A DNA stretch of 64,000 nt from an uncultured Gemmatimonadales bacterium. GTDB lineage: Bacteria > Gemmatimonadota > Gemmatimonadetes > Gemmatimonadales > GWC2-71-9. Numbering within the stretch: the stretch's first letter is position 1; each line of letters opens with the position of its first letter. Below the pieces are notes generated by a model. The model was given only the letters and a program-made list of their open reading frames with translations, was not told the DNA's origin and made no database searches. Position numbers and translations under genes: made by a program. The DNA is taken from the NCBI GenBank assembly GCA_963730185.1, contig CAVSQW010000004.1, positions 32,001-96,000 on the forward strand, read 5' to 3'. Positions 21,600-40,596 of this stretch are shown here, in pieces.

Positions 21600-22543
21600 T
21601 CAGCCCGCGAGGCGCCGCACGATGTCGGCGGCCGGCAGGACGCCGTCGATCGCACCGACGCTCCGGCCGGCGTAGAGCGCCATCGCCTCGACCTGTCCGG
21701 TCGTGCCGGGCAGGGGTAGGTCGTCGCCGTAGCGTCGCAGGGTCCGGCCGTCGGGCGCCGTGGCGATCGCCTCGCCTTCGCCGGGGCGGTGGGGCGCGGG
21801 CGGGCGCCCCGCCTCCTCCCAGCGTCGCACGGTGCTGTTCCGGATGACCCGGTGGGCGGCGTCGGGCCAGCCGCCGTCGAAGAGCGTCAGGTGGACGGTG
21901 TCGTCGGCGCGGGCATCCAGCAGCGCCTGCCTGTAGACGTCGTGCACCCGGGCTTCCACCGAGGCCAGGAACCGGGTGCCGACCCAGACGCCGGCCGCGC
22001 CGGCGCTCCGGGCTCGGGCCACGTCCTCCCGGGTGGCGATGCCCCCGGCCGCCAGGACCGGTCGATCGGGAACGGCGGCTACCACCGCCGGCAGCAGGGT
22101 GTCGAGCGGCTCGCGCCCGCGGACGTGCCCACCGGCCTCAATGCCCTGCGCCACGATCAGGTCGACCCCGAGCACGGCGTGGCGGCCGGCCTCGTCGGCG
22201 GACCCGACGGTCGAGATCGACCGATGCCCCGGCGGCGCGGATGGCCGGCAGACACGGGGCTGGATCTCCCCAGAAGAGCGAGATGACCGGCGTGCCCTCG
22301 TCGAGCGCCACCGTCGAGCCGCTCGTGCTGGGCCCAGGCGAGGACCAGGTTCACCCCGAAGGGCCGCTCGGTGAGGCGCCGAATCGATCGGATCGCGGTC
22401 CGAAGCTCGTCGGGCGTGAGCCACGATCCGGCCAGGACCCCAAGCCCGCCGGCGTTCGAGACCGCGGCGACGAGCTCAGGGCTGCAGGCGCTCCCGACGG
22501 GTGCCTGCACCACGCGGGTCGGGGGAAGCGCCGCCGAGCTCAT
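21600..22543 (-). CDS. Nitronate monooxygenase / enoyl-ACP reductase II-like flavoenzyme, frameshifted (~22200-22320)
   Basis: QAP..ELVAAVSNAGGLG, PFGVNL, QGIEAGGH, AAGGI and GTRFLAS motifs; ATGA overlap with tetR. Confidence 0.87.
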
Positions 22544-23226
22544 CGCATCGACCGGGCTGGGGCGGCCGGCGCCGCCGACCTCGCCCCAGGGTCGGCCAGC
22601 AGACCGCGAAAGACCAAGTCGAACCAGGCGTCGACCTGGCGGTCGAGCGGAACCCGGTCGCGCTTGAGCAGCTTGCCCACCGTATGGTATTCGTGGATCA
22701 CGCCCATCAGACTGGGGACGATCAGCTGACTCACCGTGTCGGGGTCGACGGGGCGGAATTCGCCCGAGCTGATCCCGGCTTCGATCACCCCGCGGAGCAG
22801 CCGGCCGAACCGCCCGCCAACCTCGTCGACCATGATCCGGGCGGCCCCCGGCAGCGCGGCGGCTTCGCTCCGGATGACCGCCCCGAGGCAGGCGCTCGGG
22901 CGATCGGCCGAGAGCCGGGCGAGCGACCGAAGCACGGCCTCCAGGGTGGCGCCGGCCGATTCGCCGCCCTCCACCATCAGGGCCTCGATCTCGGCGAGCG
23001 CCTCGACCTTGCTCCGGACCAGCTCCTCGAACAGGGCCTCCTTGGATCCGAAGTAGCGGTGCACGGTGCCGGCCGATACCCCGGCGCGCTTGGCCACGTC
23101 GGTGAGCGCGGCCCGGACGAACCCCATCTCCCCGAACACCAGCGTGGCCGCGTCGAGAATCTCGCCCCGGCGCGCTTCCGGCCGGCGGCTCCATCGCGGC
23201 GCGTTCCTGGGGTGCTCGTCGGCCAT
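22540..23226 (-). CDS. TetR/AcrR family transcriptional regulator
   Basis: EILDAA..VF...DVAKRAGVSAGTVHRYFGSKEALF HTH motif. Confidence 0.92.
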   Translation of the reverse strand: MADEHPRNAPRWSRRPEARRGEILDAATLVFGEMGFVRAALTDVAKRAGVSAGTVHRYFGSKEALFEELVRSKVEALAEIEALMVEGGESAGATLEAVLRSLARLSADRPSACLGAVIRSEAAALPGAARIMVDEVGGRFGRLLRGVIEAGISSGEFRPVDPDTVSQLIVPSLMGVIHEYHTVGKLLKRDRVPLDRQVDAWFDLVFRGLLADPGARSAAPAAPARSMR

Positions 23227-23238
23227 GTCGGAGCCTCC

Positions 23239-24711
23239 TTACGGGGTGGTGGCGTCGCTCGTCCCGGTCCACCGCCCCCCGATGGCCTTGTAGAGCTGGA
23301 CCGTCGCGGCGAGGTACTGCCGGCGGGCGGAGGTGAGCGCGAGCTCCGCGACGAAGAGGCTCCGTTGAGCGTCCAGCACCTCGAGGTAACTCGCGATCCC
23401 TCCCTCGTAGCGGCGTTGGGCCAGCCCGAGGGCGTCGCGGAGCGCGATGGCCTGGGTGGAAAGGGCGGCCACCTGATCGCGGTTGGTGCGGACACCAACC
23501 AGCGCGTCGGCGGTCTCGCCCATCGCGGTGAGCACGGTCTTCTCGTAGCGGGCTCGGGCCTGTTCCGCCCGGGCCCGGGCCGCATCGACGTTGGCCTTGC
23601 CGCGCCCGCCGTCGAAGAGCGGGACCGAGATGCCCAACTGGACGCCGTAGATCTCCGAGTTCTTGGTGAAGAGGTCCTTGGAGTTCGGGGTCTGGCTGCC
23701 GTACTGGCCGGTCAGCACGATCCGAGGGAGCCGGGTGCCCACCGCGAGGCCGATCCGATTGGTGGCGGCAGCCAGCTCCCGGTCGGCCCGCCGGACGTCG
23801 GGTCGCCGGAGCAGCACGTCGGCGGTCACCGAGTCGGGTACGACGACGGCCGCGACGGCGGCGTCGAGGCTGGAGCCGGTCGGAATCGGTCCCGGCGCCC
23901 GCCCGACCAGGATCGAGAGCTGGTGCTCCTTCCGGGACAGATCGCGGGTGAACTCCGCCACCCGAGCGGCCGGCGCGGCCAGGTCGGCCTCGAACTGGCG
24001 GACATCGAGCTCGGAGATGAGGCCCTGGGCGTAGCGTCGCCGGGCCAGCTCGAGCGTGGTTCGACGGGTGGTCAGCGTCCGCCGGGAAACGGCCAGGTTC
24101 TCGCGGAGCTCCAGCAGCTCGAGGTAGGCGGTCGAGACGTCCGCCACCAGGGTCAGGGCCACGGCGCGCTGGTCCTCCACCCGGGCGTCCCGGTCCGCCC
24201 GGGCGGCGCCCAGCCCGCGCCGGAGCCGGCCCCAGAAGTCGAGCTCCCACTGGAGGTCGCTCGTAACCCGGATGGCGTCGTACTTGAGGGCCCCGAACGA
24301 GCCGAACACGGCCTGCTGGGTCGAGGCCGAGCCGTTCAGGTCGATCTCGGGGAGGAGCGGGCTCCGGGAGGTGGTGACCAGGGCCCGGTACTCCCGGACC
24401 CGCGCGATGGCCTCCTGGAGGTCGCGGTTGTCGTGGAGCGCGGTCTGGACCAGGTCGACGAGGACGGTGTCGTGGATCACGTCGAGCCAGGTGGCGGCAT
24501 CGACCGCCTGGGCATCGAAGACCGGGAGCGCGCCGGCGGGCTCCGCGGCGGCCGCCCGGGTGGCCAGCGAGTCGAAGAGCGATGCCTCGGGCGCCCTCGG
24601 TGGGGCCACCGCGATGACCGTCGGCGCCACGGTCGGCGGCGAGTAGCCCGGCCCCACCGCGCAGCCGGCGGCGAGGCCGAGGGCCACCAGCGGGGAGAGT
24701 CGTCGGGTCAT
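23239..24711 (-). CDS. RND efflux outer-membrane lipoprotein (NodT/OprM family)
   Basis: Lipobox AAGC-AVGP; WELDFWGR, RRPDVR.A, YLEVLDAQR and LYKAIGG motifs. Confidence 0.93.
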   Translation of the reverse strand: MTRRLSPLVALGLAAGCAVGPGYSPPTVAPTVIAVAPPRAPEASLFDSLATRAAAAEPAGALPVFDAQAVDAATWLDVIHDTVLVDLVQTALHDNRDLQEAIARVREYRALVTTSRSPLLPEIDLNGSASTQQAVFGSFGALKYDAIRVTSDLQWELDFWGRLRRGLGAARADRDARVEDQRAVALTLVADVSTAYLELLELRENLAVSRRTLTTRRTTLELARRRYAQGLISELDVRQFEADLAAPAARVAEFTRDLSRKEHQLSILVGRAPGPIPTGSSLDAAVAAVVVPDSVTADVLLRRPDVRRADRELAAATNRIGLAVGTRLPRIVLTGQYGSQTPNSKDLFTKNSEIYGVQLGISVPLFDGGRGKANVDAARARAEQARARYEKTVLTAMGETADALVGVRTNRDQVAALSTQAIALRDALGLAQRRYEGGIASYLEVLDAQRSLFVAELALTSARRQYLAATVQLYKAIGGRWTGTSDATTP

Positions 24712-27700
24712 GAGGTCACCTCCGCCTGGCGGCGCCCTTCCGACACCCGGCGGATGGTCGCGAAGAAGAGGGGGATGAAGAAGATCCCGACCAACGTCGC
24801 GAACAGCATCCCGAAGAACACCGCCGTGCCGAGCGAGTGGCGGGAAAGGGCCCCGGCCCCGCCGGCCACCACGAGCGGCAGCACCCCCAGGATGAAGGCG
24901 AACGAGGTCATCAGGATCGGCCGGAACCGCTCCCGGGCGGCCTCCATCGCCGCCTCGCGGATCGAGGCGCCCCGGGAGCGGAGCACGTTGGCGAACTCCA
25001 CGATCAGGATCGCGTTCTTGGCCGCGAGGCCGATCACCGTGATCATCCCGACCTGGAAGTACACGTCGTTCGGCATGCCCCGGGTCCAGATCGCGAGGAA
25101 GGCGCCCAGGGCCCCGAACGGCACCCCGAGCAACACGGCGAAGGGTATGCTCCAGCTCTCGTACTGGGCCGCGAGCACCAGGAACACCAGGACGATGCCC
25201 AAGCCGAAGATCAGACCGCCCTGCCCGCTGGAGGTCTTCTCGGCGAAGGACTGACCGCTGTAGCCGTAGCCGACTCCCCGAGCGGCGAAGTCGTCCTTGA
25301 CCAGCCGCTCCACCGCGCTCAGCATCTCGCCCGAGCTGTGGCCCGGCGCCACCGAGGCGGTGATCAGGGCGGCCGGGAAGCCGTTGAAGCGGCGGACCAG
25401 GCTCGGGCCGGTCCGGAACTCGGCCCGGGCCAGGGCGGAGATCGGGATCATTTCGCCCGACGTGCTCCGGACGAAGATCCGGTTCAGGTCGTCGGGCGCA
25501 TGCCGGAACTCCGGCTGGGCCTCCGCCTGCACCCGGTAGGTGCGGCCGTAGAGGTTGAAATCGTTGATGTAGAGCGACGAGAGCATCGTCTGCAGGGTCT
25601 CGTAGAACGAGCCCAGCTCGACATGGCGGGTCTTGATCGCGTCACGATCGATGTCGAGGTAGAGGAGCGGGGCATCGACCCGGAAGGTGGTCGCGGCGCC
25701 GCGAATCGCGGGCTCCCGGTTGAGCGCCTGAATGAAGTCGTTGACCGTGCCCTCGAAGGTCCGGAGATCCTGGCCCAACCGGGCCTGGAGGTTCACCTCC
25801 AGCCCGGAGGTGAAGCCCAAACCGGTGATCTCGGGGCTGTTGAAGGCGAAGGTGATCGCGTCAGGCAGGCCGAAGAACCGGCCGTTGATCCGCTGGAGGA
25901 TCGCGTCCACGCTCTCGTCCTTGCCGCGCTCGTCCCAGGGCTTGAGCGCCACGAACATGGTGACGCTGTTGGGCTGGTTGGAGAACGACAGCAGGTCGAG
26001 CCCGACCAGGGCGGTGACCCGTTGGACCGCCGACTCGTGGAGCAGGATCTGCTCGACCTGGCTGGTGAACTCGCGGGTCCGCTGGAGCGACGCCCCGGCC
26101 GGGAGCTGGGCCGCCACGATGAAAGTGCCCTTGTCCTCGGTCGGGAGGAACGCCGACGGCACCCGGCGCTCGAGGACGACGATCAGGGCCAGAATCACCC
26201 CGAACACGGCCAGCCAGGGCCGGGGCCGACCCAGCACCAGGCCCACCCGGTGCACGTAGCCCCGGGTCATCCGGGCGAACGTGGTGTTGAACCAGGTGAA
26301 GAACCGGCCGTGCCGGGCCTTCTCGGGCGGCTCGGTGAGGAGGAGGGCGCAGAGCGCGGGCGTCAGGGTCAGGGCCACGATGCCCGACAGCACCACCGCG
26401 ATCACGATGGTGATGGCGAACTGCTTGAACATCGTCCCGGTGATGCCGCCCAGGAAGCCGACCGGGATGAAGACCGCGCAGAGCACCAGCACGATCGCCA
26501 CCAGGGCGCCCGCCACCTGTCCCATGGCCTTGTCGGCCGCCTGCCGGGCGGGGATGCCCTCCTCGGCCATGATCCGCTCGACGTTTTCGATCACCACGAT
26601 CGCGTCGTCGACCACGATCCCGATGGCCAGCACCAGGCCGAAGAGGGTCAGGACGTTGATGGAGAAGCCGAAGGCCAGCAGACCCAGGAAGGTCCCGATC
26701 ACGGACACCGGTACCGCCAGGATCGGGATCAGGGTGGCGCGCCAGCTCTGGAGGAAGAGGAACACCACCAGGGTCACCAGCAGCATCGCCTCGCCCAGGG
26801 TTTTCACGACCTCCTCGATCGAGGCAGTGATGAACGGGCTGGTGTCGAAGGAGACGGCCCACTTCACCCCGGCCGGGAAGGCGCGCTCGAGCTCGTTCAT
26901 CCGATCGACCAGCGCCTGCTTGACCGACAGGGCGTTCGCCCCCGGCTGGAGGAAGAGGATGAAGAGGGCGGTGGGCTTGCCGTTGAGCCGCCCCTCGAGG
27001 TCGCTGCTCCGCGGGCCCAGCTCCACCTTGGCCACGTCCCGGACCCGGACCAGCGAGCCGTCGGACCGGGCCCGGACGATCACCTCCCCGAACTCCTCCG
27101 GCGTCCGGAGCCGGCCCCGGGCGGTCACCGGGATGGTGAGCTCCGTTCCGGGCGGCGCCGGCTCCCGGCCCAGGCGGCCGGCCGGGGCGGTGGCGTTCTG
27201 TTCCCGCACCGCGGTGGCGACGTCGCTCACCGTCACCCCGAGCTGCGCCATCCGATCGGGATCGAGGCGGATCTGCATGGCGAACTCGGTCCCGCCGAAG
27301 ATCTGCGCGTCGCCGACCCCGGGGAGCCGCTTGATCTCGTTCTCGATGTAGAGCTTGGCGTAATTCGTCAGGAACGAGGCGCCGTAGCGGGGATCGTCCG
27401 AGGTCAGCGTCCCGACCAGCAGGATGTCGCTGTTGGCCTTGGTGACGATGATGCCGTTCCGCCGGACCTCCTCGGGGAGCTGCGGCTCGGCCAGCTTGAT
27501 GGCGTTCTGCACCTCGACCGCCGCGAGGTCCTGATTGCGGGACACGTCGAAGAACGCCTGGAGGGTCAGGGTCCCGTCGCTGCCGTTGGACGAGTTGAAG
27601 TAGAGCAGGCCGGACAGGCCGGACAGCTGCTGCTCGATCGGCGCCGCCACCGCCTGGGCGACGTCTTCCGCGGTGGCGCCGGGATACACCGCGTTGACCC

Positions 27701-27878
27701 GGATCGAGGGCGGGGTGATCGAGGGATACCGGTTGACCGGCAGGTACCGGATCGAGAACACGCCGAGCAGGGTGATGACGATCGAGATCACCGCCGCGAC
27801 GACCGGGCGGCGGATGAAGAAGTAGCGAGGCTCCCCCGGCGGAACCGGGCCCGAGGAGAAGGGCGACTCGCCGCTCAC
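24708..27878 (-). CDS. HAE1 family RND efflux permease (AcrB/MexB-like)
   Basis: FFIRRPV, GIVVDDAIVVIEN, AKNAILIVEF and RFRPILMTS motifs; 1056 aa. Confidence 0.96.
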   Translation of the reverse strand: MSGESPFSSGPVPPGEPRYFFIRRPVVAAVISIVITLLGVFSIRYLPVNRYPSITPPSIRVNAVYPGATAEDVAQAVAAPIEQQLSGLSGLLYFNSSNGSDGTLTLQAFFDVSRNQDLAAVEVQNAIKLAEPQLPEEVRRNGIIVTKANSDILLVGTLTSDDPRYGASFLTNYAKLYIENEIKRLPGVGDAQIFGGTEFAMQIRLDPDRMAQLGVTVSDVATAVREQNATAPAGRLGREPAPPGTELTIPVTARGRLRTPEEFGEVIVRARSDGSLVRVRDVAKVELGPRSSDLEGRLNGKPTALFILFLQPGANALSVKQALVDRMNELERAFPAGVKWAVSFDTSPFITASIEEVVKTLGEAMLLVTLVVFLFLQSWRATLIPILAVPVSVIGTFLGLLAFGFSINVLTLFGLVLAIGIVVDDAIVVIENVERIMAEEGIPARQAADKAMGQVAGALVAIVLVLCAVFIPVGFLGGITGTMFKQFAITIVIAVVLSGIVALTLTPALCALLLTEPPEKARHGRFFTWFNTTFARMTRGYVHRVGLVLGRPRPWLAVFGVILALIVVLERRVPSAFLPTEDKGTFIVAAQLPAGASLQRTREFTSQVEQILLHESAVQRVTALVGLDLLSFSNQPNSVTMFVALKPWDERGKDESVDAILQRINGRFFGLPDAITFAFNSPEITGLGFTSGLEVNLQARLGQDLRTFEGTVNDFIQALNREPAIRGAATTFRVDAPLLYLDIDRDAIKTRHVELGSFYETLQTMLSSLYINDFNLYGRTYRVQAEAQPEFRHAPDDLNRIFVRSTSGEMIPISALARAEFRTGPSLVRRFNGFPAALITASVAPGHSSGEMLSAVERLVKDDFAARGVGYGYSGQSFAEKTSSGQGGLIFGLGIVLVFLVLAAQYESWSIPFAVLLGVPFGALGAFLAIWTRGMPNDVYFQVGMITVIGLAAKNAILIVEFANVLRSRGASIREAAMEAARERFRPILMTSFAFILGVLPLVVAGGAGALSRHSLGTAVFFGMLFATLVGIFFIPLFFATIRRVSEGRRQAEVTS

Positions 27879-29071
27879 GACGCCCCTCCGGCCGCCGTGC
27901 TGTCCGCGCCGGGCTCGGCCTTGGCCGGCGTCGGCTTCGCCACGCCGCCGGGACGGACCTTCTGGAGGCCGTCGACGACCACCCGGTCACCGGGAGCGAG
28001 CCCCTCCTCGATCAGCCACTCGTCGCCGACCCAGGCGGTCGCCTTGACGTCGCGCGCCACCACCGTATCGCCGGCGCCGAGCAGATAGACCGACTGTCGC
28101 CCCAGCTGCTGTTGGACGGCGCGCTGCGGCACCAGGATGGCGCTGTCCCGGACCAATCCCTCGAGCCGGACTCGAACGAACTGGCCCGGAAGCAGCAGAC
28201 GCTTCGGGTTCGGGACCCGCGCCCGGAACTCCTGGGTGCCGCTGGCCGGGTCGATCACCGGCTCCACGTAGTCGAGCTTGCCCTCGGTCGGGGTCAGCGT
28301 CCCATCCGGCAAGATGATCCGGATCCGCGCGGACCCGCCGGGCCGGAGGGCCGCCACCGCCTGGGGATCGCGACGCCAGTGAAGGGTCTGCTGATTCGAG
28401 GGCCGGAAGGTGACCCGGACCGGGTCCAGCGCGTCGATCGTGGTCAGCAGGTCCGCCGGTCCGGTAACCCGGGCCCCCCGCACCAGGTTGGCCTTGCCGA
28501 CCCGCCCCGCGATCTCGGCCCGGACGGTCGCGTCCTTCAGGTCCTTGGCGGCGCGGTCCACCGAGGCCTGCGCATCCTCGACCGACGCCCGCGCTTGGGC
28601 CTCGGCGGTCTCGGCATCGTCCACGTCGCGCTGGGCCACGGCGTGGTCGGCCAGCAGGGGGCGGAGCCGCTCCATCGTGCGGGTGGCGTTCCGGAGGCGG
28701 GCCTCCGCTTCGGTCTGACGAGCCTTGGCACCGCGAAGCGTGGCGTCGTAGCTGGTGGGGTCGATCCGGAAGAGCACGTCGCCGACCGCGACCTCGGCCC
28801 CTTCGCGAATCGGCTGGGCCACGATCACCCCCGCCACCGGGGAGCGGACCTCCACCCGGCGCATGGCCTCGACCTGGCCGGCGAACTCGGCGACCTCGTT
28901 CACCCGCCGGGGCTGGACCGCCACCACCCCCACCGTCGGCGGCGGTAGCGGGGGCGGTTGGGGAGCGTTGCAGGCCAAGGCGACCATCACCGTGCCCGCC
29001 GCCGCGATTCGGCGGAACGACGTCAGCCAACCGCGCGAATCCGCCCTTGCCCCCGATGTCGCCACAGCCAC
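27875..29071 (-). CDS. RND efflux periplasmic adaptor (AcrA-like)
   Basis: Lipobox ALAC; EVRSPVAG, LFRIDP, LLPGQFVRV and GDRVVVDG motifs. Confidence 0.93.
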   Translation of the reverse strand: MAVATSGARADSRGWLTSFRRIAAAGTVMVALACNAPQPPPLPPPTVGVVAVQPRRVNEVAEFAGQVEAMRRVEVRSPVAGVIVAQPIREGAEVAVGDVLFRIDPTSYDATLRGAKARQTEAEARLRNATRTMERLRPLLADHAVAQRDVDDAETAEAQARASVEDAQASVDRAAKDLKDATVRAEIAGRVGKANLVRGARVTGPADLLTTIDALDPVRVTFRPSNQQTLHWRRDPQAVAALRPGGSARIRIILPDGTLTPTEGKLDYVEPVIDPASGTQEFRARVPNPKRLLLPGQFVRVRLEGLVRDSAILVPQRAVQQQLGRQSVYLLGAGDTVVARDVKATAWVGDEWLIEEGLAPGDRVVVDGLQKVRPGGVAKPTPAKAEPGADSTAAGGAS

Positions 29072-29188: not shown

Positions 29189-29599
29189 TCAGAAGCGGCC
29201 GCCGATCACGGGCAGCTCGCGCCGCCGGATCACGATCACGATCAGCGCCGACACCAGCACCGTCACCGCCATGCCGAAGAGGAGCCCGCCGTCGCCCTGG
29301 ACGTCGATTCCGAGCCGGGTCAGGTGGGCCCCGATGGCACCCACCATCAGGCCCAGGGCCAGGACCGCGCCCACGGCCGGGGTCTTGGGGTAGACCAGCA
29401 GCAGGGCCGTGATCAGCTCGAGGATTCCGGTGCCGATCCGTCCCCAGGGCTCGACGCCCAAGGTGGAGAAGATGTACTTGGCTTCGGGGGCGCCGGTGAA
29501 CTTGAAGAAGAGAGTCTGGGCCAGAATCACCGCGGCGAGGAGCTGGAAGATCCAGCTCGCCACCAGGGCGGGTTTGCTCGGCGCGACGGGTGCGGACAC
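29189..29599 (-). CDS. DoxX-like membrane protein
   Basis: QTLFFKF, EPWGRIGTG..EL and GAI..HLT.LGI motifs; strong AAGGAGGT RBS before GTG. Confidence 0.85.
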   Translation of the reverse strand: MSAPVAPSKPALVASWIFQLLAAVILAQTLFFKFTGAPEAKYIFSTLGVEPWGRIGTGILELITALLLVYPKTPAVGAVLALGLMVGAIGAHLTRLGIDVQGDGGLLFGMAVTVLVSALIVIVIRRRELPVIGGRF

Positions 29600-29617: not shown

Positions 29618-32260
29618 TCAGGCCGCCTCCACGTGGGCCCGGCCGGCCCGGCGGTGGCGACGCATCAGATCGAACAGCCCACGGAGCGGGGTGGGGGTGG
29701 CGCCGGCGACCCGGTTACGGGTCCCGATCTCGAAGAGGAGTGCCCACTGCCGGAACAGCACTCGATAGGCCCGGAACAGCGAGTTGGCCGGATCGTAGAT
29801 GCTGGTCGCTTCGGAGGTGGCGCCGTTGAGCTCCAGGATCTTGAAGCTGTCACCCCGGCTCAACGCCTCGTACGACGGCGCTCTGATGTCGTAGCGCCCG
29901 AACCAGAACCCATCGTAGGTCCGGCTCACCTCGTCGATCGCGGCCTCGAGGGCCGGCGTTCTGACCCGCTCACCCTCGAAGAACGCCGCCCCCCGGCAAT
30001 GGGTTCCCAACTCGGCCAGGGGGACGATTTCGCCCGCCGCTGGGACGCTGGCCAACCGGGACGCATGATGGGTGAGAAAGAACCGGGCCATGCCGACCGC
30101 GCGGTCGTCGGTCAGGATCAGTTCCTCCAGCGACCGGACCCCGTCACCGGTGACGGCGGGGAGCCGCTTGTCGGTGAGGGCGAAGAGCCGGCCCCGCTCC
30201 TCACCGGGGATCCGGTAGTAGAAAATGCCCATCTCGACGCCGGGCACGTACTCCTGGATCAGCACCGGCTCGACCGCCCGGGCGAGGTAGGCCTCCGCGG
30301 CGGCCAGATCCCGAACGATGGCCACTCCATCGCCGCGCTCGCCGACGTCGGGCTTGAGCACCACGGGAAAGTCGAGCCGGTGCTCGGTCAGGAAGCGTCG
30401 GACCGCCGCCACCCGTTCGGCGAGCGATCCGCCGGGCGGCAGGAGACGCCAGCGGGCCACCCGGTCGCCGGCGCCGTCGAGCCCGCGAAGGATCTCCGCC
30501 TTGGACTCGCCCACGAAGCCGCCGCCCGGGATCGCCGGGTTGGCCGCGGTCCAGACCGTCAGGCTCCGGTGCTTGAGCGCCAGCCAGAGGACGTAGAGCA
30601 CCACCGGTGGATAGAAGGCCCAGCGGGGCCAGTATTCCCAGCGGGTGAGCCGCCGCCAGCGGGAGACCAGGAGCCGCCGGCCCCGCCAGGAGCAGAGCGG
30701 GACCACCAGCTTGACCACGATCAGGAGCAGGAGCGCCACCCCGAGCAGGGTGGGCATGGCGAATCGCTGGTAGGCCGTGAACCCGGCGAGCACCCGACTT
30801 CCGAAGAGGGCGCTGGCGCCGACCAGGGCGGGCGTCCAGAGCGCCGCCGCGAGGACGAAGACGCCGAGGAAGGCGAGCGCCCGGGTGTGGAGGATGCCGG
30901 CCGTCAGATAGGTCGGGAGGCGGGTGCCGGGCACGAACCGGGTCAGGAGGGCGATCCAGGCCCCATAGCGGCGGAACCAGGCCGAGCTCCGGTCGATGTC
31001 GGCGTCACTGACCAGCCAGCGGAGCGGCGCCCGGCGGACGGCCGGCCGGCCGATCCAGCGCCCGGCCGCGAAGAGCAGGAGGTCGCCACCCACGATCCCC
31101 ACCGCGCACGCGGTGGTGCCGGCCACGAACCCGAGGGAACCCCGGCCGATCAGGAGCCCGGCGGCGATGCAGGCCAGGTCTTCGCTGACCAGCGTCGCCA
31201 CGGCCAGGAGCACCAGCAGGATGCTCAGCGCGAGCCCGGCGACCGGCGGAATGACCCGGGGGTCGAACGGCCGGGCCGCCGCGGCCAGCCGGGCCGGGTC
31301 GGCGGTGGCCCGGGTTATGGCGGTGCCCTGGTCGACCGAGTCGAGGAACCGGTCGACGACCGGGGCGAGCTCGGACGCGCGGGCGAAGGCCATGAAGTGG
31401 TTGGCTGCCGGATCGCGAAACATCACCAGCTCGCTCTGGGGGAGGAGCCGGGCGTGCTCAGCGGCGATCGCGGGCTGGACCAGCGGGTCCCGGTCGCCCT
31501 GGATGATCAGCGCCGGTCCGCCGAACCGGCTCAGGATCCCGCGGAGCGGCCGTTGGTCGGAGTCGTAGAAATTCCGGGCATACTCCACGTTCAGCATCCC
31601 GAAGAGCCCGCCGTCGGGGGCGCCGACGTGGGGAACGGCTTCGCGGAGGAGCCAGAGCCCGGCCAGCTGGAGCCCGTGAATGGTGTGGTTCAGGTAGTAG
31701 TCGCCGAGGAGCTCGTATTCCTGCGCGCCGATGGCCGAGAGGAGGGTGAGCGACTCGATCCGGTCGGGCGCCAGTCCCGCCATGCTGATGGCCACCCCAC
31801 CGCCCATGCTGAAGCCCAGCACGTTGGCCTTCCGGATCCCGAGCGAGTCCATCAGCTCGAGCACGTACCGGGCGTGGGCCAGGAACGAGTAGTCCGGGAC
31901 GTCGTGGGTGGAGCCACCGAACCCGGGCAGGTCGGGCGCGATGGCCCGGCGCCGGGCGCCGAGCAGGTGGGTGAGCTGGGAGACCTCGCGGTTGGAGCCC
32001 GGGCTCCCGTGGAGCAGGATGATCGGAGTCCGGTCGTCGGCGCTGTCGGCGCTGTCGGGCCGAACGTCGAGGAAGGCGAGCCGGACCGTGCCCGCCACCA
32101 CCTTCGCCCCCCGCACCGCGCCGACCGGCACGACCCGTTCGGTCGGGCGGGGTGTCGGGACGAACGGGTGGGCCGAGCGCCACAGGTGTGACAGCGCGAC
32201 CAGGACGGCCCAGACTCCCACGACCCATCGGAGCCAATGGCGCCGGGGCCGGCCGGTCAT
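29618..32260 (-). CDS. Triple fusion: alpha/beta hydrolase + DedA/VTT membrane domain + ATP-grasp (D-Ala-D-Ala-ligase-like) domain
   Basis: Hydrolase: HGSPG, GFSMGG, GDRDPLV, ANHF. DedA: ATLVSEDLACI, RFVPGTRLPTY. ATP-grasp: LKPDVGERG, IQEY, FGRYDIR, ILELNG. Confidence 0.85.
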   Translation of the reverse strand: MTGRPRRHWLRWVVGVWAVLVALSHLWRSAHPFVPTPRPTERVVPVGAVRGAKVVAGTVRLAFLDVRPDSADSADDRTPIILLHGSPGSNREVSQLTHLLGARRRAIAPDLPGFGGSTHDVPDYSFLAHARYVLELMDSLGIRKANVLGFSMGGGVAISMAGLAPDRIESLTLLSAIGAQEYELLGDYYLNHTIHGLQLAGLWLLREAVPHVGAPDGGLFGMLNVEYARNFYDSDQRPLRGILSRFGGPALIIQGDRDPLVQPAIAAEHARLLPQSELVMFRDPAANHFMAFARASELAPVVDRFLDSVDQGTAITRATADPARLAAAARPFDPRVIPPVAGLALSILLVLLAVATLVSEDLACIAAGLLIGRGSLGFVAGTTACAVGIVGGDLLLFAAGRWIGRPAVRRAPLRWLVSDADIDRSSAWFRRYGAWIALLTRFVPGTRLPTYLTAGILHTRALAFLGVFVLAAALWTPALVGASALFGSRVLAGFTAYQRFAMPTLLGVALLLLIVVKLVVPLCSWRGRRLLVSRWRRLTRWEYWPRWAFYPPVVLYVLWLALKHRSLTVWTAANPAIPGGGFVGESKAEILRGLDGAGDRVARWRLLPPGGSLAERVAAVRRFLTEHRLDFPVVLKPDVGERGDGVAIVRDLAAAEAYLARAVEPVLIQEYVPGVEMGIFYYRIPGEERGRLFALTDKRLPAVTGDGVRSLEELILTDDRAVGMARFFLTHHASRLASVPAAGEIVPLAELGTHCRGAAFFEGERVRTPALEAAIDEVSRTYDGFWFGRYDIRAPSYEALSRGDSFKILELNGATSEATSIYDPANSLFRAYRVLFRQWALLFEIGTRNRVAGATPTPLRGLFDLMRRHRRAGRAHVEAA

Positions 32261-32994
32261 CAAGCGGGCTCGCCCCGGCGGGGAAGGGAGAGCGTGGTCA
32301 CCGGGCCGCCCTCGCAGGGGGCGCCGTCCACGTGGGCGAGCTGGACCTGGTGGGTCTCGACCGTGACGACCGTGTATCCCCGGGTTGCCGCCTCGGGCCG
32401 GTGCATGCACACCGAGAAGGGCCCCCGCTCGGGGTCGTGGCTCCGGTGGAACCGATCGAGCCGATCGCGGGTGACCGGGCCGTCGCCCAGCATCGCCCGC
32501 CAGGCCGCGCTCCGCGCCCGCTCGGCCTCGGCCTGATCGCGGCCCGAGCTGGTCCGGATCATCCCGGGCGTCTCCACCAGCGCGCGGAGCAGCAGGGCGC
32601 CGGTCCAGTCGGTGAGCAGGACTTCGCGGCCGGGGTCGACGGCGGCCAGGGTGAACGGCTGATACCGACCCAGCGTGGCTGGCGCCAGCCGGTCGATGGC
32701 GCGGCCGGCCGTTCGGGCATCGAGCAGCGAGCGAACCAGGAGGCCGCGGCTCACCCGGTTGGGTTCTGGATCGGGCGGCGACTCGGCGTACCGGTTGAGG
32801 AGCGCGATGGTGACCCCGTACTCGTTGACCCCGATCCAGGTACCGCCGAAGTCGCCGTCGGTGGGGGCGAGATAGGCTACACCCTCGCGCTCGCCCCGCG
32901 TCGGCGGCAGGGCAGGGGCCCGGGTCAGACGCTCGTCGCGGTTGAAGTAGAGGGCGTAGCCGTCGGGCTCACCGAGCCAGCTCAGAGTACACAC
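32260..32994 (-). CDS. NRDE/TANGO2 family protein (Ntn-hydrolase fold)
   Basis: GTG-Cys-Thr start; NRDE, GGTWIGVNEYG and SRGLLV motifs. Confidence 0.9.
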   Translation of the reverse strand: MCTLSWLGEPDGYALYFNRDERLTRAPALPPTRGEREGVAYLAPTDGDFGGTWIGVNEYGVTIALLNRYAESPPDPEPNRVSRGLLVRSLLDARTAGRAIDRLAPATLGRYQPFTLAAVDPGREVLLTDWTGALLLRALVETPGMIRTSSGRDQAEAERARSAAWRAMLGDGPVTRDRLDRFHRSHDPERGPFSVCMHRPEAATRGYTVVTVETHQVQLAHVDGAPCEGGPVTTLSLPRRGEPA

Positions 32995-33509
32995 TACCGC
33001 TCGGCCCGAGCGTGCGCCTGGGTCGAAGGGGCCACGCCGAAGTCGGGGCCGAGGGTCACCGGCTCGTCGGCCAGGAGGAGCTTGATCAGGGCGAAGTGAT
33101 GCACGGTATGACTCACCAGAAACTGGATCTCGCGGGCCACCGTGGACCGCGACCACTCGGGCTCGGGCGCGTCGACGGCGGTCCGGAGCTGGACGGCCAC
33201 CGGCCGATCGGGCTCGATGCCTTGGAGCGAGGCCAGGCCGTCGAGGGCCTCGCGGGTGGCTTGGGCGGCGCGAGTCGGGTCCTGCTCGAGCCGGGCGTCG
33301 CGCCGCCGGGCATCGTAGTCTATCGCCCCGGTGGCCACCCCGGCCAGGAAACACTGATAGTGCTCCACCACGTGCCGGTACTGCGCCCCGACCGGCGCCC
33401 AGCCGCCCCGGTGGGCCGCGTACCGCTCCGGAGACAGCGCGACCAGCAGGGCGAGGGCCTGTTCCAGGAGCAGGCGATTGGCGTCGAGGCCGGTTTCCAG
33501 CGGGTTCAT
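32994..33509 (-). CDS. DinB/YfiT-like protein
   Basis: GAQYRHVVEHY, IDYDARRRD and REIQFLVSHTVHHFALI (conserved His) motifs. Confidence 0.82.
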   Translation of the reverse strand: MNPLETGLDANRLLLEQALALLVALSPERYAAHRGGWAPVGAQYRHVVEHYQCFLAGVATGAIDYDARRRDARLEQDPTRAAQATREALDGLASLQGIEPDRPVAVQLRTAVDAPEPEWSRSTVAREIQFLVSHTVHHFALIKLLLADEPVTLGPDFGVAPSTQAHARAER

Positions 33510-34363
33510 GCGCTCTCCACGGTTCCGGCCCGGGCCGACTCGAGGCGGCGGGCCATCAGCGATCGGGCCCGCGCCGCCAACGCGCTCCGGTCGTCGGCGA
33601 CGAGGCCCTCGGGCTCGAAGGTGACGGTAGCATGGAACCCGGGCAACTGACAGAGCCCGAGCACGTGGGGCACGAACGCCATGTCGCCCCACCAGCACAC
33701 CGCGTCCCGCGCCGGCGGCGAGCCGGCGGGGGTCTGATAGCGGATCGTGGCCACGCGGACCGGCGATCCGGAGCGGACGGCCCACTCGAAGAGCGCCGGC
33801 CGCAATTGAGAAACGTCGTCACCGTGGGAGCTGGTTCCCTCGGGGAACACCACCACGCCGAGCCCCCGGGCGACGCCCTGGTCGATCGCGTCGAGGACCC
33901 GGATGGCGTCGCGCGGGCTCGACCGGTCCAGGAATATGGTGCCCACCAGCCGGGTCAGATACCCGACGATCGGCCACTGGTTGAGCTCCCGCTTGGCCAC
34001 GAAGACCACGTCGACCTGGCTCATCAGAAGCACGATGTCCACGTAGCTCAAGTGGTTCGCCACCAGGAAGAAGGGCGGTTCCGGCACCGGCCCTTCGATC
34101 GTGACCCGCATGCCGACGGAGCGGCTCATGCCCCGGGCCCAGAGCCGTGCCATCCGGGCCAGCCACCGCTGCCGGGCCCGGGCCCAGGGCGTCAGGATGC
34201 CGATCCCGACCAGCGCGACGGTGAGGCACCCGGTGGTCCACCAGCTCATCAGCAGGAGCCGCCAGAACGGCCGGACCGAGCCGGCGCGGATGAGTCCCGC
34301 CAGCTCGGCCGGGAGGCTCTGGCCGAGCACCTCACGGCGGATCTCCGAAGGGGCGTCGCTCAC
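33506..34363 (-). CDS. Lysophospholipid acyltransferase (PlsC/OlsA-like)
   Basis: NHLSYVD, FVAK, GTIFLDR and FPEGT motifs; also CWWGDM.F..H. Confidence 0.92.
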   Translation of the reverse strand: MSDAPSEIRREVLGQSLPAELAGLIRAGSVRPFWRLLLMSWWTTGCLTVALVGIGILTPWARARQRWLARMARLWARGMSRSVGMRVTIEGPVPEPPFFLVANHLSYVDIVLLMSQVDVVFVAKRELNQWPIVGYLTRLVGTIFLDRSSPRDAIRVLDAIDQGVARGLGVVVFPEGTSSHGDDVSQLRPALFEWAVRSGSPVRVATIRYQTPAGSPPARDAVCWWGDMAFVPHVLGLCQLPGFHATVTFEPEGLVADDRSALAARARSLMARRLESARAGTVESA

Positions 34364-35184
34364 CGGAAGAAGGTGCGGAAGGTCGCCGGGTCGATGGTCC
34401 TCACGTCGAGCATCACCAGCCAGTCGATGGTCTTGAACAGGGGATCGATTGCCGGCGGGCCGGCCACCTTCGCTCCGAGCGCCAGATAGGTCTGGAACAG
34501 CGCCGGGACGTGCGGCTCGGGCAGCGGGGCGTCCGGATCGGCCACCGCGCACCGTCCGGCCGGGCGGGGCTGCACCCCGAACCGCTCGTCCACCGCGCCG
34601 ATCCGCTCCAGGTGGCGGTGGACCGAGACGCCGACCGCCGGATCCATGCTGTTGACCGAACAGCAGCCGAAAAGATAGTGCTTCCGGTTCCAGGTCAGGT
34701 AGGAGGCCAATCCCCGCCAGAGGAGGTGCAGCACCCGGCCGTTCCGATGGGCCTTGGCCACGCAGGCCCGCCCGATTTCGACGGCACCCCCTTCGACGTC
34801 GGCGGGGAGGCCGCTCAGATCGAACTCGCCGTCCGAGTAGTAGCCGCCGCCTTCGCGGGCCATCTCGGCGGTCTGCATCCGGTAGGTCCCCACCACCTCG
34901 GTGCCGGAGCGGTCGAGGATCATCAGGTGGTGGAAGCGCTGATCGAGGTCGTCCTCGTCACGGCCGTTCTGATGCGAGCTGTCGAGGCCTTCGCCCAGCT
35001 CCAGGTTGAAGACCTCGTAGCGGAGCCGGAGGAGCCGGTCGAGGTCGGCCGCGGTGCGGGCGAACCGGACCAAGTAGTTGCCGGCCTCGAGGTGGAGATC
35101 CGGCAGGGCGTCGGGCGCGATCGGGTACTCGGCCGTGGCGGGCTCGAGACTCCGGATCGAACGGCGACGGATGGGCTCGATCAT
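34360..35184 (-). CDS. GNAT-fold N-acyltransferase (OlsB-like N-acyl amino acid synthase)
   Basis: RLRYEVFNLEL, DEDDLD, VVGTYR, EFD, EIGRACV..HRNG, LW.GL, FGCCS and GPPA.D..F.T.D motifs. Confidence 0.88.
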   Translation of the reverse strand: MIEPIRRRSIRSLEPATAEYPIAPDALPDLHLEAGNYLVRFARTAADLDRLLRLRYEVFNLELGEGLDSSHQNGRDEDDLDQRFHHLMILDRSGTEVVGTYRMQTAEMAREGGGYYSDGEFDLSGLPADVEGGAVEIGRACVAKAHRNGRVLHLLWRGLASYLTWNRKHYLFGCCSVNSMDPAVGVSVHRHLERIGAVDERFGVQPRPAGRCAVADPDAPLPEPHVPALFQTYLALGAKVAGPPAIDPLFKTIDWLVMLDVRTIDPATFRTFFR

Positions 35185-36962
35185 GCGGCACTCCGGAGCG
35201 AAGAAGGATCGGCTTCGAGGAGCCAGAGGTCGCCGAGGCGGGCGACCCGGCCGGTGACGGCGACCGGCCGTCCCACCCAACGCGCGAGGCCCGCGATCGG
35301 TTGCCCGCGGCGATCGACCAGGAGCAACTCCAGCCGGTGGCCCTGCTCGTCCCGCACCACCAGCATCGGAGGTAGGCCGCCCGCCACGCAACGCGCGGCG
35401 CACTCCCGGTGGGTCTTGCCCTCCCCCGGGTTCATTACCCCCAAGTAGCACTTGCCGTCCACGATCTCCCCTACGAGATCGAAGGTACCGAGGTTCTGGG
35501 GCGCGGCGGCGGGCGCGGCCGGCTCGGGACGGGGCGCCGTGCCGCTCACCTCGAGCAGGGTCAGCCCGTCGCGATAGGCCAGGGTACCCCGGAGCACCGC
35601 GCGGCGGCCGTCGAGCGGCCCGGCGATCGCCTGGGCGCCGTGCTTGCCGGCCGCCGCCAGCAGATAGCGGCTGACCCGTTCGCTGCCGGGCCGCTGAACT
35701 TCGAGGAGCGGGTAGGGGGCGGTTCGAACCGTGCCGATCAGCTCCGTCGGGTGGCCGTACTCGAACGTTGCCGGCGCGAAGCGATCCTGCGCAAGAGCCA
35801 AGACGCCCACGATGGCTCCGACCAGTACCAGAGCGGCCACGACCAGGTGCCGGGTGAATCGGGCCAGCCCGGTGGGGGCGGTGGGCACGTAGCCGACGTA
35901 GAACTCGTCCCGGCCCGCGGGCGCGGACGGGGACGAGGGGGCGGCCACCGGCTCGACCCGGGTTCCGGGGGCGTTGGGGATCCGATGCACCAGCACCCGA
36001 TCGCCGGCCAGGCGGAGGTTGAAGGTGGGAATCCGGTCGTCGAACGGCGGCGGCGCGGTGCCGCTGTCGGGGCGATACTGGTAGCCGTGCCAGGGACAGG
36101 TGATGCAGCCATCGACGATCCGGCCTTCGCCCAGGGGGCCGTTCTGGTGCCGGCAGACGTTGGAGACCGCCGAGAGCCGGCCCTCGTGCCGGAACACCGC
36201 GACCCGCTCGCCGCCCACCACGCCGACGATGGCGCGGCCCTCGGGGATCGAGGCGGCCGAGCCCACGTCCTCCCAATCCTGGTCCGGCGCCCCCTCGCGA
36301 TCGCGGGCCCGCTCCCGGAGGGCCGCGGCCAGGTGCAACCCCCCGATCGCGACCGCGCCCAGGGCGAAGGGCGCGGCGTACCACAGGCTCCGCTCATCCT
36401 GAAGCACGCCCAGCCCCACGTGGCCGAGGAGCAGCAGGTAGGCTGGGTACACGAGGAGGTGGAGCCGCTTCCAGGCCGGCGGGGTGAGGACCGAGAGCCA
36501 GTAGTCGTGGCTGGTGGCGGCCATCAGGACCAGGATCACCAGCGCGCCGAGGCCCAGCAGCTCGAACGGAAAGCCGCTCACGCTGGTCCAGCTCCGATTC
36601 GAGATCAGCACGCTCACGAGAGGGTTCACGTTGCCGAAGGCGTGGAACTGAACCAGCGCGAACCCGGCATGCGCCAATGCCAGGAGCGCCATGGCGATGC
36701 CCAGGTGGCGGCGGTTGTAGAGCAGGGGCAGAAAGCGCCGGTCCAGGCGAGCCAGCGGGCCGATGGCGAGGATCAGGTGGAGCAAGACGATCCCCGCGAG
36801 GCCGAGCCCCCGGATCAGGATCGTCTCGGCGGTGGCGTCGGGGTGGGTGAGCGCCGTGAGGCCCCCGAACCACGCCACCAGGCCGACCGCCGTGACCCCG
36901 AGAACCGCGTCGTAGATCCGCTTCTGACGGTTCCAGTTGACGGCCCGGTAGGCGACGCTCAT
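35181..36962 (-). CDS. Ferric-reductase-like (MsrQ-type) heme-b membrane domain + Rieske [2Fe-2S] + C-terminal Cys/His domain fusion
   Basis: RRHLG, AHA, ATSHD and WKRLHLLVY; Rieske CRHQ...CPWHG; a further TM helix, then C-x12-H-x2-C-x3-C. Confidence 0.85.
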   Translation of the reverse strand: MSVAYRAVNWNRQKRIYDAVLGVTAVGLVAWFGGLTALTHPDATAETILIRGLGLAGIVLLHLILAIGPLARLDRRFLPLLYNRRHLGIAMALLALAHAGFALVQFHAFGNVNPLVSVLISNRSWTSVSGFPFELLGLGALVILVLMAATSHDYWLSVLTPPAWKRLHLLVYPAYLLLLGHVGLGVLQDERSLWYAAPFALGAVAIGGLHLAAALRERARDREGAPDQDWEDVGSAASIPEGRAIVGVVGGERVAVFRHEGRLSAVSNVCRHQNGPLGEGRIVDGCITCPWHGYQYRPDSGTAPPPFDDRIPTFNLRLAGDRVLVHRIPNAPGTRVEPVAAPSSPSAPAGRDEFYVGYVPTAPTGLARFTRHLVVAALVLVGAIVGVLALAQDRFAPATFEYGHPTELIGTVRTAPYPLLEVQRPGSERVSRYLLAAAGKHGAQAIAGPLDGRRAVLRGTLAYRDGLTLLEVSGTAPRPEPAAPAAAPQNLGTFDLVGEIVDGKCYLGVMNPGEGKTHRECAARCVAGGLPPMLVVRDEQGHRLELLLVDRRGQPIAGLARWVGRPVAVTGRVARLGDLWLLEADPSSLRSAA

Positions 36963-37426
36963 CGGGGCCCTCCCCTCGGGCGGAGCGGGGTGACGGCTTC
37001 GACCCGACCTGGCCCGTTGCTCCAGAGTATGGCCGTCAGCCTCCCACTCGGGAGCCGAAGCCGCTCGGAGACGGCGCGAGGCGCGCCGACCGCGCCGACC
37101 AGGATGGCGTCCGCGGGAAGCCCGCCGGTGCTCGATACGCCCGGGGCCAGGTAGAGCAGGGGGTCGGCCGCCCGGATCGGAAACCGCGGTCGGGTGGTCA
37201 CCACCGTCTCCCCGGTGGCTGGGTTGCCGGCGAGCGACACGATGAGCGGGAAGGTCGAGTCGGCCACCAGGTCGTCGGTCGCAGGGTCCGAGGTGCCGGG
37301 AAGGACGGCGACCACGAGCCGCGACGGATCGGGTCGGGCGGCGAGCGCCCCGAGCACGATGGTCGGCCCGACCGTGACCAACGCCACCGACCAGGCCAGG
37401 TGCCGTCGTCGGAGCCTTCGGATCAT
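36959..37426 (-). CDS. Hypothetical membrane-anchored protein
   Basis: MIRRLRRRH, one TM helix and 'ADPLLY' soluble domain; ATGA overlaps at both ends. Confidence 0.7.
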   Translation of the reverse strand: MIRRLRRRHLAWSVALVTVGPTIVLGALAARPDPSRLVVAVLPGTSDPATDDLVADSTFPLIVSLAGNPATGETVVTTRPRFPIRAADPLLYLAPGVSSTGGLPADAILVGAVGAPRAVSERLRLPSGRLTAILWSNGPGRVEAVTPLRPRGGPR

Positions 37427-37695
37427 CCGGGCGGCCTGGCTCGGGCGGCGTCGCGATGGGCGTCGTGCGGCTCGGGCGGGGCTGGGCCTCCGCGGGACAC
37501 CCGCCACACGATCGCCGGCCAGAGCAGCGCGGCGCCGGGCACGATCAGGAGTCGAAAGCCCCAGGTCCCGTGGCCGGCCGCGGGATCGAGCCGACCGGCC
37601 CCACGGAACGCCAGCCACGCCGCGCACCCGGCGCCCACCGCCAGGTAAGCCGCGGTGAGGAGGACGATGGTGGAGGCGGTCTGGATCGCGGTCAT
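37423..37695 (-). CDS. Small 2-TM hypothetical protein
   Basis: AAYLAVG...RLDPAA..GTWGFRLLIVPG.ALLWP; ATGA overlap with the next gene. Confidence 0.72.
   Translation of the reverse strand: MTAIQTASTIVLLTAAYLAVGAGCAAWLAFRGAGRLDPAAGHGTWGFRLLIVPGAALLWPAIVWRVSRGGPAPPEPHDAHRDAARARPPG

Positions 37696-37890: not shown

Positions 37891-40592
<2,702 letters not shown>

Positions 40593-40596
<4 letters not shown>

Follow-up and report, generated by a model that had tools for sequence, protein, structure and literature searches.

The stretch analysed here (the window) comprises 64,000 nucleotides from an uncultured Gemmatimonadales bacterium (GenBank assembly GCA_963730185.1, contig CAVSQW010000004.1, positions 32,001 to 96,000). 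Its minus strand carries a gene for a fusion of an α/β-hydrolase, a DedA/VTT membrane domain and an ATP-grasp ligase, which is the subject of this work. A preliminary description of the locus had likened the protein to synthase-flippase fusions of the MprF type, as a machine that ligates, flips, and then cleaves or transfers its substrate. The features of the fusion gene, with residues in amino acids (aa), are as follows.

29618..32260, minus strand: fusion protein, anchor or signal + α/β-hydrolase + DedA/VTT + ATP-grasp, 880 aa
32171..32242, minus strand: helix near the N-terminus, aa 7-30, preceded by basic residues; predicted to act as signal anchor or signal peptide
31331..32089, minus strand: α/β-hydrolase domain, aa 58-310, with Ser151-Asp258-His288 and oxyanion motif HGSPG; predicted periplasmic
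30695..31237, minus strand: DedA/VTT domain, aa 342-522, from Pfam and the structure model
29696..30640, minus strand: ATP-grasp domain, aa 541-855, including a hydrophobic helix with the WEYWP motif; predicted cytoplasmic

Domains and integrity of the fusion protein

Translation of positions 32260 to 29618 on the minus strand gave 880 residues followed by a stop codon, with a third-position GC content of 0.84-0.98 along the whole gene, in agreement with the uninterrupted open reading frame (ORF) of about 880 aa first described. The motifs named at that time were all recovered: GFSMGG (Ser151), GDRD (Asp258), NHF (His288), WEYWP, ANP..GG..GESK and GTHCRG. Pfam searches identified Abhydrolase_1 (PF00561; 94.8 bits versus a cut-off of 25.8, E = 8.7e-27) and VTT_dom (PF09335; 56.1 bits versus 33.9, E = 6.6e-15), together with a RimK ATP-grasp match below cut-off (E = 0.0014). 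A full-length AlphaFold model (mean pLDDT 92, pTM 0.73) showed three domains, so that the claimed combination in one chain is borne out by Pfam for the first two domains and by the model for all three.

A homolog search with the fusion returned 2908 matches, and the 120 listed, with 56-96% identity over 91-100% of the query, all have the same three-domain architecture. Five of five homologs tested aligned to the window in a single frame, and related-strain contigs (run X1) span both domain junctions gap-free (31179-31455 and 30655-30945). An indel artefact joining separate genes, a concern raised at the outset, was rejected on these grounds, and we conclude that the fusion protein is real, conserved and uncharacterised. 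When 120 ligase domains were placed on a tree, the sequence from the window fell among those of its genus and family, and genomes of the same class clustered with named Gemmatimonadota, so that the host most likely belongs to this phylum. The frame check mattered because a neighbouring MGH1/GH63-like glycosidase gene (37912-40596, plus strand) has a stretch in another frame: positions 38771-39064 match its homolog in frame 2 and the remainder in frame 1, and two compensating frameshifts, from assembly error or decay, are therefore indicated in that gene.

Foldseek searches with the full-length model returned only hydrolases (esterases), and the C-terminal 360 residues were then folded alone, giving a model with pLDDT 97. 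With this model, the bifunctional glutathione synthetase GshF and cyanophycin synthetase ranked first in Foldseek (E = 2.5e-11), and structural comparison found 68 chains at Z of at least 8, the top rows being all ATP-grasp. LysX/ArgX aligned over 220 residues (Z 15.6, root-mean-square deviation (rmsd) 3.5) and cyanophycin synthetase over 271 (Z 13.9, rmsd 4.3). A 96-row ligase profile also ranked cyanophycin synthetases first, with the KP..G.G.G and E.N motifs aligned to theirs. At the level of these models, the ATP-grasp fold of the C-terminal domain is confirmed. Lys587, Lys636, Gln669, Glu676, Arg683, Arg789, Asp791, Glu810 and Glu817 are invariant in all 96 ligases, while Glu542 and Asn812 are present in 95 and His754 in 90. 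From other ATP-grasp enzymes, we take the KP motif, Gly loop, RxD and ExN to bind nucleotide and metal, and by analogy with its closest solved relatives, all amide-forming enzymes, the ligase would likely form an amide via an acyl phosphate.

The domain shares its fold, nucleotide-binding motifs and a VxGDG lid insertion with the cyanophycin synthetase G domain, GshF and RimK-LysX, but is only 16-21% identical to them and has its own hydrophobic N-terminal helix, which is conserved and opens the domain in stand-alone members too. Membership in the cyanophycin synthetase or RimK families was rejected, as the scores lie under the family cut-offs. No Dala_Dala or bacterial Ddl model matched at E ≤ 0.01, and Ddl_archaea reached 20.8 bits against a cut-off of 500; judged by sequence, the database label "D-alanine--D-alanine ligase", frequent on relatives, has no support. 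At 50% identity, the ligase family falls into 1200 clusters (E ≤ 1e-30), and matches in the ESM Atlas were confined to unnamed or RimK-like clusters.

In the DedA domain, the model shows two re-entrant hairpins formed by split helices (342-358/360-372 and 419-440/447-456), with Glu360-Asp361 and Arg441/Arg447 at the predicted tips invariant in 121 rows. An acidic first tip and a basic second tip are features of the COG0586 DedA subfamily of anionic-lipid flippases (PMC10127716), and the domain matches this pattern, an assignment based on the tip residues. By analogy, it likely flips a lipid. Since the phosphatidylethanolamine (PE) flippase PetA belongs to it as well (PMC10193950), the subfamily does not by itself identify the cargo. 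Membership in UptA was rejected (NCBIfam scores of 47.8 bits versus 250 and 41.6 versus 300).

Membrane topology was assessed from charge averages over 121 sequences and from the DedA helix layout in the model. The loop after the first transmembrane (TM) helix and the stretch after the last one carry on average 7.1 and 6.9 Lys+Arg, respectively, versus only 1.0 and 1.8 in the alternate loops. By the positive-inside rule, the ligase is predicted to be cytoplasmic; the hydrolase, which continues into the first re-entrant hairpin without an intervening TM helix, is predicted to lie outside. Charge pattern and modelled helix layout thus support an arrangement with the hydrolase out and the ligase in. 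The mildly basic linker ahead of DedA (4.6 basic versus 3.0 acidic residues) fits this less well. At the N-terminus, a mean of 3.1 Lys+Arg precedes a helix with mean hydropathy 1.6, and in 67 of 92 full-start homologs the helix reaches a Kyte-Doolittle value of 1.6 over 15 residues. The helix of the membrane anchor proposed earlier is therefore present, but it is only moderately hydrophobic and could be a cleaved signal instead of a firm anchor.

Operon, relatives and aminolipid genes

The genes surrounding the fusion are listed below.

29189..29599, minus strand: DoxX-like membrane protein, 136 aa, 19 bases past the fusion stop; recurrent neighbour
32260..32994, minus strand: TANGO2/NRDE protein of 244 aa with Cys as residue 2; its stop codon overlaps with the fusion start (TGATG)
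32994..33509, minus strand: DinB-family protein, 171 aa, with His motifs RHVVEH and HTVHH
33506..34363, minus strand: OlsA-like O-acyltransferase (PF01553; closest NCBIfam model, scoring under its cut-off, is lyso-ornithine lipid O-acyltransferase)
34360..35184, minus strand: OlsB-like N-acyltransferase (PF13444; closest NCBIfam model, scoring under its cut-off, is L-ornithine N(alpha)-acyltransferase)
35181..36962, minus strand: ferric-reductase-like membrane domain joined to Rieske, with the C-terminal part unassigned; recurs as a neighbour
36959..37426, minus strand: 155-aa ORF without family, present in 1 of 20 relative loci
37423..37695, minus strand: membrane ORF of 90 aa, no family assigned; probably opens the operon and recurs as a neighbour

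Starts and stops overlap from the Rieske gene through the OlsB-like, OlsA-like, DinB and TANGO2 genes to the fusion, followed by DoxX, an arrangement indicating translational coupling of the fusion to the two acyltransferases, DinB and TANGO2. A promoter and terminator scan of the locus gave nothing above chance. The OlsB-like gene is the sole PF13444 match in the genome of the window; its equivalog score was 128.7 bits versus 350 and that of the OlsA-like gene 120.2 versus 300, the models being lineage-specific.

Twenty relative loci were drawn from strong matches in the same phylum. OlsB-like and OlsA-like genes adjoin the ligase in 19 of these, and DinB and TANGO2 in 16. A wider set comprised the best 80 of 594 GTDB loci, with flanks of up to 8 kb. 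Here 13 loci have the triple fusion, 44 a fusion of ligase and DedA, and 23 a ligase on its own; DedA is fused or adjacent in 72. DinB was found in 44 loci, TANGO2 in 38, DoxX in 34, Rieske in 21 and LPLAT in 16, while a PF13444-type gene lies within range in 30, spread over many phyla, including 10 of the 13 triple fusions. The same parts also occur as split genes, namely ligase, hydrolase and DedA in Paracoccus, and DedA, ligase, DinB and TANGO2 in Salinivibrio.

The Ser-Asp-His hydrolase noted in the preliminary description does appear intact in the window, with its PF00561 match and with Ser151, Asp258 and His288 kept in 121 of 121 close sequences, yet it is not a constant part of the system. 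A fused hydrolase domain is missing in 67 of the 80 GTDB loci. Among 150 representatives at 50% identity, 76 matched the hydrolase profile and 74 did not, with some fragments in both groups. Of 74 divergent representatives of at least 700 aa, 55 keep the Ser, 17 have Gly in its place and 2 lack the domain; the Ser is kept in 29 of 30 triple fusions from the loci. As judged from these sequences, the hydrolase is accessory and the conserved core is ligase plus DedA. Since the hydrolase is mostly unfused or absent and 17 of 74 have Gly for Ser, cleavage or transfer cannot be an obligatory step, and this part of the earlier scheme needs correction, although the ligase and the analogy for flipping stand. 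The hydrolase was also rejected as a substitute for OlsA, as 9 of the 13 GTDB triple fusions and 19 of the 20 relative loci come with an OlsA-like gene.

Co-occurrence was then examined genome-wide. Within the phylum (201 genomes), all 24 genomes with a ligase match at E ≤ 1e-20 also had PF13444, compared with 7 of the 177 others; another 20 matches, at E > 1e-6, were attributed to other ATP-grasps and not counted. The 24 genomes represent 9 genera, and 22 have both genes within ~6 kb on one contig. In Verrucomicrobiota (231 genomes), the figures were 28 of 31 versus 95 of 200. The ligase family is thus nested within genomes carrying an OlsB-type gene.

Among Acetobacteraceae, 124 of 251 genomes have the ligase, with DedA directly ahead of it in 20 of 20 loci examined. 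In Bacteroidia, the ligase was found in 79 of 301 genomes; of 20 loci there (L215-L234), 16 contained DinB, 11 contained TANGO2 and 10 had an adjacent gene for a LysE-type transporter, which perhaps substitutes for DedA. GlsB homologs span the orders (PMC12971839). A role as universal synthase of flavolipin, a Gly-Ser lipid, is not supported, given this spread and the presence of the family in 79 of 301 genomes (a count pooled over orders).

Proposed function and competing explanations

We propose, with a probability of about 0.55, that the ligase forms an amide on the free carboxyl of an ornithine-type lipid and that the DedA domain flips the product. A PF13444 N-acyltransferase and an LPLAT form the standard two-step route to aminolipids (PMC11631085), and the OlsB-/OlsA-like pair would accordingly make an ornithine-type lipid with a free head-group carboxyl. 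The predicted cytoplasmic ATP-grasp domain would activate this carboxyl and join an amine to it, the DedA domain would flip the more anionic product outward, and the predicted periplasmic hydrolase may trim or re-acylate the lipid in an accessory step. A lipid carboxyl is the simplest substrate because the ligase is membrane-bound, is seldom found without the OlsB pathway, and finds a free carboxyl on the head group. The preliminary description, which left the adjacent OlsB-/OlsA-like genes unused, had also assigned the domain a ligase function; tying it to an ornithine-type aminolipid refines that assignment.

A precedent exists as an activity in Gluconobacter cerinus, where taurine is transferred in an ATP-dependent reaction to a hydroxylated ornithine lipid, forming cerilipin, by the product of a gene reported as unknown (PMC12971839). 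This amide formation on an aminolipid carboxyl belongs to the reaction class of ATP-grasp enzymes. Four family members (P0525, P0535, P0537 and P0538) are named as G. cerinus proteins, of which P0525, a stand-alone ligase of 354 aa unlike the fusion, shows 39% identity over 342 residues. The sequence match is consistent with a link to cerilipin, as a test passed and not as proof. An anionic amine, either an amino acid or the taurine of cerilipin, would fit the conserved basic residues; the amine in the genome of the window may differ from taurine, as no taurine supply was found there. Three unlinked pyridoxal phosphate (PLP) decarboxylases are present in that genome. TANGO2 has been proposed to be an N-terminal nucleophile (Ntn) amidase for fatty-acid derivatives (PMC13044924), and 55 of 59 matches carry a Cys at the start of the protein. 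By analogy, these features fit the reverse reaction, and TANGO2 may act as a cytoplasmic amidase that reverses the ligation or recycles its product.

The likeness to synthase-flippase systems drawn at the outset holds, with different folds. In the lysyl-phosphatidylglycerol (PG) system, the periplasmic hydrolase AcvB acts on lysyl-PG made by LpiA (PMC13197417), and DedA fusions to lipid enzymes, including DedA-MprF, have been reported (PMC10193950). The principle of making inside, flipping and hydrolysing outside would be common to both, as is DedA fused to a lipid-modifying enzyme. The MprF/LpiA synthase, however, is a tRNA-dependent GNAT enzyme acting on PG, whereas the fusion uses ATP-grasp, carries its hydrolase in the same chain and is linked to aminolipid genes. 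Membership in the MprF synthase-flippases was rejected, with no such hit among the six Pfam families listed and other folds in the model. Among ornithine-lipid pathways (OlsB/OlsA, OlsF, OlsH/OlsI), the adjacency of PF13444 and LPLAT genes resembles the window, and OlsI, an O-acyltransferase in ornithine-lipid synthesis, is itself an α/β-hydrolase; the available part of the account names no ATP-grasp, DedA, DinB or TANGO2 component (PMC12971839). Our literature search, mostly of papers outside subscription journals, found no account of this ligase family, fusion or module. The fold combination that would carry the synthase-flippase-hydrolase logic thus appears to be new.

Several observations weigh against this proposal. 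The OlsB and OlsA matches lie under the family cut-offs, so the head-group amino acid is unproven, and searches of the window's genome (81.8% complete) turned up neither a cysteine dioxygenase nor a taurine-binding protein. The co-occurrence counts overstate the association, because kin are not independent; 3 of 31 ligase-bearing Verrucomicrobiota genomes have no PF13444 match, and Acetobacteraceae cannot discriminate, since 250 of 251 genomes carry it. In that family, the DedA-ligase pair lies among peptidoglycan genes (mltB, dacA, mlaD) and near uppP/bacA, not ols genes. In Bacteroidia, DedA adjoins 0 of 20 ligase loci, and OlsF-model matches occur in 49 of 79 ligase-bearing genomes versus 108 of 222 others (tallies that include the unpublished genomes G289 and G361), with a model that does not separate GlsB from OlsF and a threshold that drops split genes. 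Many neighbours are of redox type (YHS, DoxX, MsrA/B, AhpC). Finally, at locus L125 of a metagenome-assembled genome (6837-9020), DinB runs in frame straight into DedA and the ligase, which may reflect a lost stop, a deletion or a real fusion; a real fusion would be at odds with an outward N-terminus. As to synthase and hydrolase on opposite faces, as in MprF/LpiA-AcvB, the charge bias favours the arrangement and L125 is a single discordant case; together with the moderate anchor, this case weakens the original claim of opposite sidedness.

An unlikely alternative reverses the order of events: the ligase would make a soluble dipeptide or amino-acid conjugate that the OlsB-like enzyme then N-acylates, or would itself join a fatty acid to an amine. 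The closest solved relatives do act on soluble or polymer substrates, ATP-grasp activation of a fatty acid is documented for Legionella acyl-histidine (PMC11631085), and co-occurrence with OlsB fits either order. OlsB-type genes without the ligase occur, however, and the converse seldom, as expected for a downstream step; a substrate in the membrane is suggested by the DedA fusion and by the hydrophobic WEYWP helix, and the OlsB-like enzyme already supplies the N-acyl bond. Still less probable is a relay in which the ligase loads a carrier lipid, for example of the undecaprenyl-phosphate type, DedA flips it, and the hydrolase serves as obligatory transferase to an envelope acceptor. In 16 of the 20 Acetobacteraceae loci, uppP/bacA lies within ~2 kb, but an oppositely oriented mlaD separates uppP from the pair. 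The DedA tips match the subfamily that holds undecaprenyl-phosphate flippases, with weak UptA model matches far below cut-off, but PetA in the same subfamily flips PE. The invariant hydrolase triad of the close sequences and the OlsI precedent (PMC12971839) would suit a transferase, although the domain is absent or degenerate in most relatives.

We regard as equally improbable a redox or stress module, in which the ligase makes or repairs a small thiol or peptide conjugate together with DinB, DoxX, YHS and Rieske proteins, the ols genes being co-regulated passengers. The unexplained roles of these four proteins suggest such a module, as do the frequent DinB, TANGO2 and DoxX neighbours in the GTDB loci, the top Foldseek match to a bifunctional glutathione synthetase, and, among 104 loci clustered, YHS in 27, an extracytoplasmic function (ECF) sigma factor in 16 and MsrA/B in 8. 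A soluble thiol would not need DedA, though; the minimal unit in Acetobacteraceae is DedA and ligase alone, and the genome-wide nesting with OlsB holds where the genes lie apart.

Beyond amidation of an ornithine-type lipid, we tentatively put forward a broader and doubtful conjecture, that this ATP-grasp family is the missing class of aminolipid head-group ligases, including cerilipin synthase, whose activity has been known since the 1970s without a gene, that the triple fusion is a single-chain machine to build, flip and remodel phosphorus-free lipids, and that TANGO2 is the reversing amidase. If the main proposal is right, it would name the gene for an orphan reaction, taurine transfer to ornithine lipid, for which a 2026 review gives the gene as unknown, add a transport step to aminolipid biology, and extend the lysyl-PG synthase-flippase-hydrolase logic to phosphorus-free lipids with different folds. 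The broader conjecture would also provide the first natural substrate for the TANGO2 disease-gene family, the link to TANGO2 offering a bacterial route to the substrate of the human disease protein. The ligase family is present in genetically tractable acetic acid bacteria.

Other arrangements and neighbours

Several variant arrangements of the ligase were seen. In a single 722-aa sequence (P0323), a TANGO2 domain is joined via two hydrophobic helices to the ligase. A divergent copy on a Komagataeibacter plasmid (L052:5073-8011), without DedA, divergently adjoins genes for a methyltransferase and an iron-containing redox enzyme (PF14518). A tetratricopeptide repeat (TPR)-like protein of ~400 aa adjoins the ligase in seven proteobacterial loci (L076, L078, L080, L101, L105, L107 and L122). 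The Rieske/ferric-reductase protein is encoded by two genes in many relatives and is linked to the module in 21 of the 80 GTDB loci, and the MGH1/GH63-like glycosidase family lies near the module in six other loci. Downstream of the operon in the window (22540-29071, minus strand), translations indicate genes for a TetR-like regulator, an outer-membrane factor, a resistance-nodulation-division (RND) transporter and a membrane-fusion protein, a set not seen as a recurrent neighbour of the module.

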